Made by a program: the position numbers and the translations under genes. A stretch of 63,995 nt of DNA, filler included, from Dugesia japonica (Eukaryota), in the NCBI GenBank assembly GCA_001938525.1. It is 5 parts of 5 records of this genome, joined end to end, with 100 filler letters (N's around TTAATTAATTAA, not from the genome) between each part and the next. Parts side by side here need not be neighbours in the genome. Positions count along the whole stretch, not along the records: positions 40,795 to 55,490 come from MQRL01607059.1; 4 more parts are not named here. One strand, 5' to 3'. Below the pieces are notes generated by a model. The model was not told the origin of the DNA. It saw only the letters and a list, made by a program, of their open reading frames with translations, and made no database searches. Positions 42,880-53,845 of this stretch are shown here, piece by piece (the first letter of the stretch is position 1; each line of letters opens with the position of its first letter).

Positions 42880-43190
42880 TATCTGTATTTTTGTTTGTTT
42901 CAGTGATTTTCTCAATGACTTCTTAATATCATCTCAATTTTTCTTAAATCTATTATATTGTTATATTTGAAGTTCCACTGGCATATGTACTCTAGTAAAG
43001 TATCGACAGAAGTCAGTGCTGTCTCGTGACGAATAAGATTGGTAATGTCTTCTATCTCATTTTCATTTTCATCTGATTGAATTAGTTTAAAAATAATATC
43101 CATGTCAATCAATGTCTGGAATTCTGGATCATATGAATCATATTTCATCCATTCCACTAAATTTTCTTTATACACCTTTTCAAAGCCATT
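42880..43190 (-). pseudogene. Tigger/Jerky-like transposase C-terminal tail fused in frame to PolB
   Basis: GFEKVYKENLVEWMKYD..DPEFQTLIDMDII...IRHETALTSVDTLLEYICQ..FKY...LRKI resembles the acidic Tigger C-terminus. Confidence 0.55.
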
Positions 43191-45562
43191 TAAATTCATA
43201 AATATTTCATAATCTGCTTGAGTCATGTGCTTTTGTTTTAAAGTATTAAAAACGTGATTAATATCTGGTGTGTAATTCATTAATTTATCTTTTACTTCTG
43301 TCCAAGTTCCTGGTATGTAATTGTATGGATAAAATCCTTTGGCTGGTTGTAAATTGTGTAAAGATAAATATTTGTGATTTCGTGATTTACTTAAATCTAT
43401 TCCCATTTGTTCAGCTGAATGACCTGAACACATTCTGTATGAATCTAAACATTTAAAAATTAAAAAAGAAAATGAAATGTAAACATCAGTATTTAATGGA
43501 ATTAGATTTTTGATTTCAGAAGGATATAATTTACACAATTCTGTAAAATTGAAATGATTGTCAAATTTTGAAGCATTGTGTGCATAAATTGGAACAAAAT
43601 ACTTTTTAATTGACTTGTCTTCAAGATTACATTCTTTATGTGCATATTCTCTAAAATGACCATTCCAGTGATTGTGATCTTTTACAATTTCAGAATATTC
43701 TGTAAATAATTTTTTACAATAGTAACATTTTTCTGGTAAGCCAACAATTGTAGAAGGATCCAATGGAAACATTTTATCTTTAAGGATTAATTTAACTATA
43801 TTATTAAATTTAACTAGCCAATTGATGAATTTTTCGATACAATCAAGTCCAGTAAAATCCATGTAAAGACTTGGAATTAATGGTGAATTTGAAACTAGAT
43901 GAAATCCACAACACATTGGTTTTAGCATATCATTGTCATTAAAAGTTTCAATATCATAATAAATAGTAAAAGGATTTTGATTTTTGTAATAGAACTTGGT
44001 AAATCTATACTTGTCTTGAAAAGTAAATTTTATGGTTGATGATTTGAATTCAAGACATGATTTTTGATGATTGGTTAATGAAACAAGATTTCTTTTAAAT
44101 GTCATACAGTTTATACAAATTTCTTGTAAATGATGTCCCTTGGTAAATATTTTACGTAAATCTCTTATTAGTATGTAATGATTATTGTAAAATAATAAAT
44201 TACATTTTCTTTCAGTATGTAATGGATGAGAATCAAAATGTGAATTGTATAGTTTAATTATCTTTCTAGTAGTTTCTCGAGGATCTGGAATTACTTCAAA
44301 AACATTGACCAAGAAATCATTTTCTCGTTCAAAATTTTTAACATCTGATATTTTTACAGGAAATGACAAATTAAACATGTTGTCTATATAATTATAAATC
44401 GAGTCACTCAATTTAGGATTTAAATGTGCTTGTATACAATAATCAAAACATTGATTGTCTGGATTTTTAATATTTAATAAACCAACTGTTGAAGACCATT
44501 CTATTGGTAAAGGAGAATAACCTTGTCCAGCCAAAGATTCGTATTTTGATAAATGATTTGTAAAAGATTCAAACAAATCAAATGACCAACCTGATCCTTC
44601 TCCTTCTACTTCAAAAATTTCTTCATTCAATTGGTCTAATATTAAATCTACAGTAATTTCAATTTTTGATTTCATTGTAATTTTTCTAGCATCAATTACA
44701 AAGTCACAACACCATGTTCTATGAGTAATGTCTTGATGATTCTCATGATTAGTTTCATCTTGATTAGTTGACGAATAATCTTTAGTAAATTTAGTTGAAC
44801 AACTCAAATGAAAAACAGTCTTGCCAAATTCATCAAAGAATATTTTTACTATATCAATCATTTCATTTCTATATTTATCAATTTCAGTAAAATTAATTCG
44901 TTGTCTGAATCAATTTATAGATTCAGATTCTGTTTTGGGATAATTCTTTTTTACTTCAAGATTTCGTTTTAATTCAACCATTGTTTCTTGACATGTTTTG
45001 ATTTCATAATCATCTTCATAATCTTCATACAATTCTTGAATTAAAATTAATCTTTTAACATTTAGTTTTTTATATTCTTTCATTAAATTTATTCATTTTC
45101 TCATTTTGAACAGCATATTCCATCAAGACATGTTCCCGTCCTTTCAAGTGACGAATATTATTAAATTTAACTTCATTANTAAATTCTTTTTTACAGATGT
45201 TACAGAAATAAATTCTTACTCGAGTGCCATTCATTACTTTTTTTTAAATGTAATTTACTTGCTAAATGTGTATCAAAATTGCATTGTCGTTTAACATGAA
45301 GTTTACAGGCTGCACAGTAATATGTTTTTTCAGGAGTGACAAAAGCCACTGGCCGCTGGCTAGTCACAACTGGTTTACCATTGTGTGCATTTCTGGGTGC
45401 ACGTGCAGTCGTAAGTGTTGCTACTCCAACCGAGGTGTTAAATGCAGGTGCATTTGAGGCGGCCGCTTGCACATTTGCTACAGGCATAATTGGAGTAGTC
45501 ATGTTAAACGCTGTTTTTATATTTTTATTATTTCTCTTGGTAGTCGCTTGTGTATTATTCAT
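43190..45562 (-). pseudogene. Protein-primed DNA polymerase B with N-terminal zinc fingers, truncated before the palm domain
   Basis: Zinc fingers (CAAC...HLASKLH; CNIC...HLKGREH); GSGWSF...LLNIKNPDNQCFDYCI; Exo I YYDIE; endonuclease VII-like CYYC...KDHNHWNGHFREYAHKECNL; Exo II HNASKFD; LDSY; KGFYPY; no SLY, NSxYG or DTDS motifs; main ORF 42912-44861. Confidence 0.9.
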
Positions 45563-45585
45563 TTTATTAAGAAATCAATTTGATT

Positions 45586-51231: not shown

Positions 51232-52621
51232 CTATAAATTAGTTTTTTGTAATTCATTATCATAAAATCTACCTAGAATCTTTTCATTATCCAAATCAGT
51301 AATTCCATAAGTAAATGGTTTTGTTTTGTATACTTTTGTAACAATAAATATTTCACTTGTCCACTTTGCTGTAAATCCTTTTTCAAATTTGTACTTGTAT
51401 TTAAAAATTCTAACTCGGTCTCCAATTTTAAATTTCTGTTTATATTCCAGATATTCATTTTCATTATTATGTTTATTAATAATTTCTTTTATTACATTTG
51501 GATTTTTAGATGCTTCTNNNNNNNNNNNNNNNNNNNNNNNNNNNNNNNNNNNNNNNNNNNNNNNNNNCTTTTATTACATTTGGATTTTTAGATGCTTCTT
51601 TTGGTGTAACTTTAATACTAGAATGAATTGTATTATTATATCCATTTACAATCTTTTGTAACAAATTATTATCCCAATTTTGATGGCCAATCAAGGTAAA
51701 ATGTTTAAATAATTTATTTTTTAGTGTCCTATTAAATCTTTCAACAAAAACTGCTTTTCCTTCATTTTCAGTAGAATACAAATTAATATTATTTTGTTGG
51801 CAAAAGGATTTGAATATTTTATNATAAAATTCACTTCCTTTATCTACCCATAAATTATTTGGTATTCTATTATTTTCTTCAATAATATTTTCAAATGAAT
51901 TTGTTATTTCTTGACCAGTTTTATTACTACATATTTTTACAAAACCAAATCTTGTATACAAATCTATTACTGCCAAAATTATTTTCTAGTTGGGCATAAA
52001 AATTAAATCTGCTGACCAAGTTTCATCCTTGTCAATTATTATTACTTTTAGAAAATGTTTTGGTTTTCTATATTCTTTATGTAATTCGTTTGCTAATATG
52101 GAGCGAACGGAGTGAGCTCCTTGTTCATTTAAACCACCACCAATCATTATTTTTCCCTTCATGGCCAACTTTACTAAATTTCTTTGAATCTTTTCTGTTA
52201 TAGTTGGATTTTCAATATTATTCAAATCATGTATTAAATTTACATCAGCAATATGGCGATCTCTAATGTCTGTTGAATTGTAACTAATATCATGTTTTAA
52301 AGCTGCTGCATCTACTCTATTAATTGGTTCTTCTCCTGGTTTGGGCTCATTGTTTTCATCTAATATTAAATCTAATCTAGTTCCTGGTCCAGTATAATTG
52401 TGTTTAAACAAGTGTCTTTCTCCTGGATATTTTTCTGTAGTAAATGGTTTTAAAATTGTTGATGTAAATTTAGAAGATTGTAAATCTACGGAGCCTCCAG
52501 CGCCTCCGGTAATGATTCCTCCAGTTGGTCTAGTTTTTTCACCTTTACAATATTTTATATGTCGTGATTTGTTACTTTTGCTCCTATCTTGATTACATTT
52601 AGGACAATTAAAAGTTTCCAT
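51232..52621 (-). pseudogene. Zinc finger - parvovirus-type phospholipase A2 - retroviral-type integrase fusion
   Basis: CPKC...HIKYC; NYTGPG...DAAALKHDISY...HIAD; LANELHK...WSADL, one in-frame TAG (51986-51988), VIDLYTRF...WVDKGSEF...VERFNRTLK...FKIGDRVRI...FEKGFTAKWTSEIF...GRFYDNELQ. Confidence 0.92.
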
Positions 52622-52697
52622 TTTTTATAAAAGATTTTTTATAAAGATTTTTAAAAAGTCTGTCACACAGTCACTACAGTCACATCAGTCTTTTTTT

Positions 52698-53845
52698 TTA
52701 CTTGATTTCAGTTCCTTTAATATTTTCTACAAACATTACTTTTCCATTAGATATTTTAAATTCTACATGTTTTTCTTGTAATATTAACACATATAAATCT
52801 CCAGTTAATTCTGTATCCTTTGTTATGTAACATGTAACATCTACATTATTAATAGTTAATTTATCATCTTGTGCTGAAGTATCAAAACAAAATATTGGAT
52901 ACAAACTTGTCCATTGGTTTATTGTCAATTGTGGTCTAGAATTAAATGCTACACACATGTCTATATAATTTTGATATGGAAATATTGTATTCTTACTATC
53001 AAATTCAATTCTAGTATTTGGGTAATATGTATTGTTTAATTGTAACTGTATATTTTTTAAATAATAAAAATCTGTATATTTTTTAAATAATAAATCTACT
53101 GGTGGAACTGCATTATTTTTTACTTTTTTAGTGATTGAACTACTTAGAGAAAACAAGTTATTATTTATTGTAAAACCAGGATTTGTTGATTTGAATCCTA
53201 CAATTACAAATCTTGGTCTATAGGGTAAATTTCCCAGTTTGATTGAAAAATTTGAACCATTAGATATTGAATTTTTATTTACATCTCGCTCAACAAAGGA
53301 AACTTGAATACCTTTATTTGTTGCTAGTCTTTCAAAATAGTTTAATTCTGTTCTAGGATTTAAAGTCCATTCTGCTATGTGTAGTTCCAAAGTTTTTACT
53401 TCAATTTTACCTCTTTTATTAAAAAATATCAACTCATCTTGAACATTTCTATTTAAATCTAATTGTATAAAAACATTAAATAACAATCTATTATAATTTT
53501 GAACAAATCCAAACAAATTACATAGAGGAAAATAACCAGATGAAAAGAATCCCTTTCTAATTTGAAAACTAGGATCATCATCTTTACCATTTTTAGTTTC
53601 AGGTGCCCATCCATATGCAATTGAAGATTTTAAACAGGCTTCATCTATTTAAATTAAATTTAACATTGTAGAAGCTATTCCTGGATTTTCAATACTTTCT
53701 ATTGTAGATGATCCTAATTTTAATCTCATACTACTAAATAAACTGGGAAACCAATCATTTTCAAGAATAGCATCCTTTGGATCTATTTCAATTTTGTAAT
53801 ACAATACAAAGCTTGTCATCGTAGCTAATGGATCCGATTGGATGA
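52698..53845 (-). pseudogene. Double jelly-roll major capsid protein, N-terminus truncated
   Basis: FPLCNLFGFVQNY...RPRFVIVGFK...QLNNTYYP...LYPIFCFDTSAQ; frame extends upstream past one TAA (~53650) to IQSDPL. Confidence 0.9.

Follow-up and report, generated by a model that had tools for sequence, protein, structure and literature searches.

A dead Alpha-type Polinton copy in Dugesia japonica carries phospholipase A2 and integrase in one reading frame, and a sister clade has the integrase in the -1 frame

A join between two genes in the genome of Dugesia japonica bears on the question of how Polintons bring an integrase onto incoming DNA. The analysed stretch of DNA (63,995 nucleotides, five parts of assembly GCA_001938525.1 joined by filler; hereafter the window) contains, at positions 43,190-53,846, a dead copy, truncated at both ends, of an Alpha-type Polinton, that is, an adintovirus-like endogenous virus. 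Decayed Polintons are common, and this ordinary dead copy reveals a variation on the Polinton gene organisation: a phospholipase A2 (PLA2) domain lies in the same frame as the integrase, which an earlier note on this DNA had overlooked. An integrase that the active virus produces solely as part of an entry protein would speak for its transport in the particle and for integration as a direct sequel to infection, and so for regarding Polintons as true viruses. The gene is located as follows.

51232..52621, minus strand: PLA2-integrase fusion gene, PF08398 and PF00665 in one frame, with one stop at 51986-51988 and one N

Here and below, broken genes were translated with X at in-frame stops only. 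The protein starts with a Cys/His finger-like stretch, continues with a parvovirus-type PLA2 domain (PF08398, E 8.3e-10, in the integrase frame) and a short Gly-rich linker, and ends with an rve integrase (E 1.6e-7, just under the curated cut-off) that has no chromodomain. The integrase start motif comes after the linker (MIGGGL in the window) in the open frame of PLA2, and the integrase frame ends right after an ELQK motif; a chromodomain-like tail was seen in none of the 42 closest fused relatives, and PF00385 was likewise not found. The PLA2 residues H110, D111 and Y114 and the integrase triad D205/D260/E294 are invariant in 28 aligned sequences. The predicted structure of the fusion consists of two domains (pLDDT 82) separated by a low-confidence linker at residues 164-168, and the model of the integrase part resembles the HIV, foamy-virus and RSV integrases (retroviral intasomes). 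An assembly gap inside the integrase (51518-51567), with a 32-nt duplicate on its flanks, is a feature of the assembly.

We then have to distinguish between a shared frame produced by decay of this copy and one inherited from its active ancestors. Protein relatives were collected with the fusion itself as the query, and among the best 120 of 271 both domains were matched in 71, a count that overstates the frequency of fusion and gives no estimate of it, because fused relatives rank first with such a query. As these 71 relatives carry both parts, the shared frame is, as judged from sequence, not an accident of decay; 63 of them keep the HD..Y and GP motifs, and the best one (P0010) shows 59% identity across 99% of the query length. 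In 65 fused proteins where the boundary could be measured, the linker usually contains no Met (n = 46), and a Gly-x-Gly motif stands at the PLA2 end in 45. Metagenomic loci (80 kept of 172), whose counts share this bias towards the fusion, gave a broader range of arrangements: 23 fused without a stop, four in the same frame with one stop, 26 in different frames, two with the parts far apart, 19 with PLA2 only and six with integrase only. We consider the fusion very probably a functional trait of the lineage.

The loci with different frames turned out to be strongly uneven. In 23 of the 26 the two parts lie within 300 nt of each other, the integrase being in the -1 frame in 19 and in the +1 frame in four. 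When the loci with a PLA2 match (n = 75) were reclassified by the integrase start motif, 28 had no recognisable start, mostly at contig ends, and the other 47 comprised 25 fused loci, 19 with the integrase in -1 and no ATG, two in +1 with no ATG, and one in +1 with an ATG. An in-frame slippery heptamer of the form X_XXY_YYZ is present in the overlap of 16 of the 19 -1 loci, compared with 0.67 expected from stretches of the same length in the same genes (0 of 100,000 simulations reached this), and 18 of the 19 -1 loci, vs. 3 of 24 fused ones, have a heptamer no more than 75 nt from the Gly motif. These junctions are not copies of a single one: at identity thresholds of 95, 90 and 80% they form 19, 17 and 13 groups, respectively, and the heptamers and spacer lengths differ among the 13 groups.

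In a tree of the integrases, 15 of the 21 rows in one branch (SH-aLRT 98) are -1 loci, and the window belongs to the neighbouring branch (SH-aLRT 99; 26 rows), which consists of 17 fused, six integrase-only and two unclassified rows and one -1 row. Each of the 21 shifted loci has an uninterrupted PLA2 frame and, at the join, six or more A in a row (6-10 A). Away from the join, 24.8 kb of these genes contain another 19 A/T runs of at least six, all within an unbroken frame. The features by which a programmed -1 frameshift is recognised, an overlapping frame lacking a start codon and an in-frame heptamer, are found in the sister clade, and on these features candidate recoding sites are assigned to that clade, not to the window. 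We regard programmed recoding in the sister clade as slightly favoured.

The reading just given, that fusion and recoding serve the virus, is opposed by a number of observations, besides the bias in the count of fused relatives. A Met is present in the linker of 19 of the 65 fused proteins, and PLA2 and integrase are apart on opposite strands in 7 of 22 loci from viral_contigs. The tree is a quick one (77 integrase rows, 180 columns, SH-aLRT support, no bootstrap), and its -1 branch also includes four fused and two +1 rows. No stimulatory hairpin is conserved at the junctions (z of -2 or below in 3 of 16, simple hairpins being considered), the heptamer coincides with a Lys-Lys pair in 17 of 19, and the loss of a single base in the A-run would likewise yield a -1 frame; near-identical loci indeed vary in the length of the run, L050 being fused, L101 in +1 and L099 in -1. 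An early stop in the integrase is seen in three of the 21 shifted loci (L069, L087, L092). In L103 the integrase is in -1, a usable slip site is lacking, and the start motif of the integrase lies in the PLA2 frame; this junction looks like an ordinary small indel. The differing A-runs of close relatives, the L103 junction with no slip site and the unconserved hairpin, together with the frequent fusions in this virus group (PMC3671162, in the part of the text available), would suit a merely tolerated fusion, in which the integrase works in the nucleus with PLA2 attached and has no role in packaging, and the -1 joins are A-run mutations or assembly hot spots. We consider this unlikely, since it does not account for the bias of 19 to 2 in favour of -1 over +1 among the loci with no ATG, spread across 13 sequence groups, for the A/T runs that remain unbroken elsewhere in the same genes, or for the retention of the PLA2 catalytic residues and the Gly-x-Gly boundary.

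The fusion could also be functional, with the integrase of the sister clade expressed in another way: through slippage of RNA polymerase along the A-run, a near-cognate start or splicing. The A-runs at all shifted junctions fit the first of these, an NTG codon (TTG, CTG or GTG) just before the conserved KW in several loci fits the second, and the missing hairpin also counts in favour of another route. On the other hand, the codon before KW is not start-like in L068, L081, L086 and L075, the junction by eye is A-rich with no pyrimidine tract, and polymerase slippage would yield the same fusion product anyway; we consider such a route improbable. Much less credible still is the interpretation of the earlier note, a near-complete and very recent provirus not far removed from an active virus. 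In its favour are the low number of lesions (about ten over 10.6 kb), with every gene recognisable, and the many related copies in host DNA runs. The interpretation is refuted for the window copy, where the polymerase domain, the start of the major capsid protein (MCP) and both termini are missing and six core genes are broken, the related contigs being mostly 90-95% alike and next to no RNA reads falling on the body of the element.

We return to the main reading, in which the integrase is synthesised at the end of a virion protein, through fusion or frameshift, and is then packaged and released by adenain, the viral protease; on balance we consider this probable. The active ancestor would make the integrase as the C-terminal tail of a PLA2 virion protein, and PLA2, by analogy with PLA2X (see below), would act as a virion entry protein. 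As the tail of PLA2 the integrase would enter the particle, a packaging step that, argued from these analogies, is rather likely. Adenain would then cut at the Gly-rich linker and boundaries, freeing the integrase; we infer cleavage at this boundary from the Gly-x-Gly in 45 of the 65 fused proteins and from the precedent of mavirus. In the sister clade a programmed -1 frameshift would lead into the integrase; PLA2 would then be abundant and the PLA2-integrase protein scarce, in a ratio resembling that of Gag to Gag-Pol. A broader proposal, held tentatively and with some doubt, is that a widespread undescribed group of Polintons converged on the Gag-Pol strategy, with a startless integrase made only as a PLA2 tail, permanently fused in the clade of the window and reached through programmed -1 frameshifting in the sister clade, and with particles that deliver a membrane-breaching enzyme together with a ready integrase. 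If the frameshift is real, gene callers would truncate or miss these integrases.

In retroviruses, the integrase is a C-terminal extension of a virion protein, made as Gag-Pol through a -1 frameshift on a slippery heptamer and released by the protease. The Polinton arrangement is similar in that the integrase forms the C-terminal tail of a putative virion protein, either fused or in -1 on a slippery heptamer. Unlike retroviruses, this is a double-stranded DNA element, its upstream partner is PLA2 rather than capsid, and no downstream hairpin is conserved; it is not a member of that group.

The comparisons that follow rely on the portions of the published papers available to us. Mavirus virophage (PMC6048507) shares the rve integrase, the protein-primed polymerase and a cysteine protease with the window element; both the rve integrase and a predicted hydrolase occur in mavirus particles, where the sites cleaved by the protease lie between GG and X and between GX and G. 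Mavirus differs in its capsid lineage and in having the integrase and the hydrolase as separate genes, and packaging is experimental there and inferred here. The PLA2 gene is typical of the virion modules of Alpha adintoviruses, where PLA2X was proposed to be a membrane-active virion protein (Starrett et al. 2021, PMC8502044). Alpha adintoviruses share with our element the PF03175-class PolB of the OTU type, rve integrase, FtsK/A32 ATPase, adenain, hexon, penton and parvovirus-type PLA2, a likeness judged from the published description. In them PLA2X stands alone and has a C-terminal protein-X-like domain, whereas here PLA2 is followed by the integrase in one fused protein and the protein-X-like frame is a separate gene; the window copy also differs in having neither termini nor a polymerase domain. 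Sf Maverick 1 and 2 of Spodoptera (PMC5803895) have PLA2, a PolB with a weak endonuclease-VII match and tandem small open reading frames (ORFs) on one strand, as here, but their PLA2 ('CAP') and chromodomain-bearing integrase are separate ORFs. PLA2-bearing Polintons as such are thus already known (PMC8502044, PMC5803895, PMC4642659). Buck et al. 2024 (PMC11071296) suggested hypothetical -1 frameshifts in the penton and hexon-adenain genes of adintoviruses, that is, in the same virus group and in other genes; the accessible text of that paper does not mention the PLA2-integrase join. We found no description of a PLA2-integrase fusion or frameshift in the available portions of the literature searched, including PMC8502044, PMC11071296, PMC10748475, PMC11131425, PMC11161782, PMC3671162, PMC5803895, PMC4642659 and 10.64898/2026.10.13.758929, although supplements, annotated files and Repbase may already show the fusion. 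The nearest named relatives are a Trichoplax MELD virus integrase, Lottia PLA2-domain proteins and a Stegodyphus protein.

Some individual loci show further arrangements. In L001 a fused PLA2-integrase (3567-4646) lies beside a PolB that by eye seems Beta-like, which suggests that the fusion may move between polymerase backgrounds. A single 434-aa ORF in L035 (2182-3483, minus strand) aligns with two genes of the window element, the protease and the protein-X-like one, being a further fusion of virion genes. The L103 element (134-11373, viral_contigs) is nearly complete, and its frames for PolB (1295 aa), MCP, penton and ATPase are open. It was the one locus retrieved from viral_contigs by a protein query, a degenerate DNA pattern for the sister-clade integrase start having given nothing there.

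The element that carries the fusion consists of about 12 intron-less genes, tightly packed head to tail, all on the minus strand. In the order of transcription, the PLA2-integrase gene stands between the first two of the following features.

52698..53846, minus strand: MCP (double jelly-roll), lacking its 5' end and with one in-frame stop (53649-53651)
50372..51129, minus strand: A32/FtsK packaging ATPase, frame change near 51035-51040 and stop at 50957-50959
49662..50156, minus strand: protein-X-like core protein, open frame with several Gly-Gly / Gly-x-Gly motifs
48737..49645, minus strand: conserved Polinton protein in three frame pieces, of which only the last matches relatives
48051..48756, minus strand: penton (minor capsid protein), frame change near 48208-48218, called from 10 relatives, their alignment and fold matches
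47559..48020, minus strand: adenain-type cysteine protease, one stop at 47769-47771
47041..47514, minus strand: open frame with a coiled-coil-like C-terminal half, sub-threshold Pfam rows only
46344..47059, minus strand: two overlapping frame pieces, from ORF calls
45586..46329, minus strand: open 247-aa frame with a central hydrophobic stretch, four relatives at 22-24% in related elements
45200..45562, minus strand: short C2H2 zinc-finger frame immediately upstream of PolB, sub-threshold match to zf-C2H2_jaz (E 9e-4)
43190..45243, minus strand: 5' half of protein-primed PolB, with a zinc-finger piece, OTU-like Cys/His motifs, exonuclease I-II and an endonuclease-VII-like insert

The capsid gene matches the Pfam double jelly-roll family PF21738 above the cut-off (E 1.8e-11), and its relatives (n = 9) are 34-50% identical, the best ones 44-45%. 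The ATPase pieces are 44-52% identical in tblastn to intact relatives, which pass Pfam Pox_A32. Seven relatives of the protein-X-like frame were found at E of 1e-3 or below, and one of them (L029:3503-4066) has a match to Adeno_PX (E 9e-4) that falls short of the curated cut-off. In the three-piece protein the C-terminal 40 aa align with four intact ORFs of 242-309 aa; it is presumably the gene labelled 'PW'. The adenain read-through from the window alone has no Pfam match, and a profile of nine sequences, in which H71, D86, Q117 and C124 are invariant, finds the adenovirus proteinase (1avp, E 9.8e-7) as its best match in the PDB and also ASFV S273R.

The penton is the weakest of the core-gene calls, with moderate support. 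Its frame has no Pfam match, and its profile found no capsid protein among PDB sequences. A partial model (mean pLDDT 60) has no Foldseek match at E of 0.001 or below, the top capsid chains having E above 0.1; seven of the first eight Foldseek rows are adenovirus, mavirus or Sputnik capsid chains, and in VIA-align five of the six rows with Z of at least 5 are EhV-201, PBCV-1, adenovirus and mavirus chains (Z 5.6-7.5). Among the remaining frames, 47041..47514 has no relative in the fetched loci and is possibly a fibre/Cah-type virion protein, and the pieces at 46344..47059, with no Pfam match and no relative in the fetched loci, are probably one gene. The nearest Atlas clusters of the 247-aa hydrophobic frame are unnamed (0.90-0.91, weak recognition). 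The polymerase has 3,153 relatives at E of 0.001 or below, one of which (P0130) also begins with a C2H2-type finger.

As for classification, the element contains the 5' half of a protein-primed family B polymerase gene, an rve integrase with the DDE triad, a PF21738 capsid, an A32/FtsK ATPase, an adenain/Ulp1-type protease and, with moderate support from the 10 relatives and the fold matches of the partial model, a single jelly-roll penton. The packed intronless array reported in the earlier note was thus confirmed together with its coordinates, and so was each of its gene calls (MCP, penton, adenain, A32-like ATPase, integrase and pPolB). The Polinton/adintovirus identity that it proposed, and that it would have given up had the frames failed to match capsid, adenain or A32 profiles, holds, as such matches were obtained. 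Among the PolB relatives scanned, two of four (P0130, P0135) pass PF03175 and all four have the endonuclease-VII-like insert, hence we place PolB in the Alpha class of PMC8502044, as described in the part of that paper at hand; the N-terminal OTU-like domain expected in this class was recognised from Cys and His motifs read by eye in the P0130 alignment, not by a profile. An integrase with a C-terminal chromodomain is typical of adintoviruses, according to the accessible text of PMC11071296, and the integrase of the window has none. We therefore file the element as a Polinton, adintovirus-like and not a strict adintovirus; that it is a Polinton/Maverick of the Alpha-adintovirus type is practically certain.

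The copy in the window is capable of neither replication nor particle formation. All six core genes contain stops or frame changes: one stop each in MCP, PLA2-integrase and adenain, one frame change in the penton, one frame change and one stop in the ATPase, and a stop with at least one frame change near the start of PolB. The one or two lesions per gene that the earlier note had counted thus agree with ours for the six core genes, whereas its description of the element as near-complete does not survive. PolB homology stops at about 43,190-43,210 (individual matches end at 43182-43314), while PolB relatives of at least 1000 aa extend beyond the break by a median of 544 residues (62 matches from 72 proteins), and tblastn of these relatives finds the missing C-terminal part nowhere in the window. 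At the other end, tblastn aligns MCP relatives only from their residue 45-68 onward, and their additional N-terminal residues, about 45-65 in number, have no match upstream of the clipped gene. Neither a terminal inverted repeat nor a target-site duplication was found in 30,000-63,995, and a scan for short motifs expected at such termini was uninformative; because both ends of the copy are cut inside genes, the termini of the family are invisible in the window. Both ends adjoin other repeats.

42912..43189, minus strand: non-PolB sequence prolonging the PolB frame by about 90 codons, with no PolB match and a drop in depth
53847..54400, plus strand: decayed pogo/DDE_1 transposase adjoining the clipped MCP start, PF03184 E 8.5e-7 for 53907-54170

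The former is probably the end of another transposon; an Atlas lead to DDE_1 is weak (0.82, 30% of members), the clusters being otherwise unnamed and recognition low. A hairpin of 88 nt at 42616-42794 (91% complementary, 3-nt loop), within a bin of very high depth, is probably a small high-copy repeat beside the left end of the element.

The DNA runs of the species contain many related copies, mostly 90-95% alike. Among the public runs listed, 11 share part of the stretch, none of them half of its words (the best 0.31), and no RNA run is on record there as sharing it. At 85% likeness, 21,304 and 21,534 contigs were placed from the DNA runs X1 and X2, respectively; by likeness, the X1 contigs divide into 1,429 at 99% or above, 4,244 at 95-99%, 9,778 at 90-95% and 5,853 below 90%. 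The insertion can thus be called recent, as the earlier note had it, in a relative sense only: 1,429 of the 21,304 X1 contigs are at least 99% alike, and most are 90-95% alike. Summed contig depth, which is not a copy number, is 275-43,000 over the element and about 24 on the unique flank. It reaches 6,000-43,000 over 50316-52635 (ATPase-integrase-PLA2), with the peak on PLA2, and 275-4,400 over the other genes to PolB; the peak may reflect many partial copies or an effect of unitig summing. Expression was estimated from two oligo-dT RNA runs, with roughly one quarter of either run used. Mean RNA depth is below 1 per strand in all bins of 43,356-52,171 and 52,636-53,563, the X13 run shows a small rise on the PLA2 bin, and 90-93% of the RNA reads placed on the element continue into unlike sequence. 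The read-depth and RNA-seq checks proposed in the earlier note therefore yielded many related copies and next to no RNA on the body, and the element is one copy of a multi-copy family that looks moderately old and near-silent in the RNA libraries examined.

The window as a whole is AT-rich (16-35% GC per kb), with many gaps and abundant decayed transposons. Another short MCP remnant, from the same lineage, is at 35090-35381 (minus strand; 50-64% to MCP relatives over about 55 aa), with no DNA match to the main element. A second relic of the 5' part of PolB at 58930-59830 (plus strand), which starts with C2H2 zinc-finger pieces (Pfam zf) and has 56 matches from PolB relatives, is a separate insertion. 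The gaps at 16758-16857, 31560-31659, 40695-40794 and 55491-55590 consist of 44 N, a 12-base palindrome and 44 N, and are assembly spacers, not biology. Decayed transposons at 26333-27255, 16802-18350 and 41154-41594 (minus strand) and at 6584-9028 (plus strand) include a DDE_1 element and pieces of LTR retrotransposons (RT, RNase H, protease). A putative EGF-like host exon at 55217-55387 has no Pfam match, and a Nudt16-like (U8 snoRNA decapping) frame at 13575-14027 (plus strand, E 1.1e-17) is likely an exon of a host gene.

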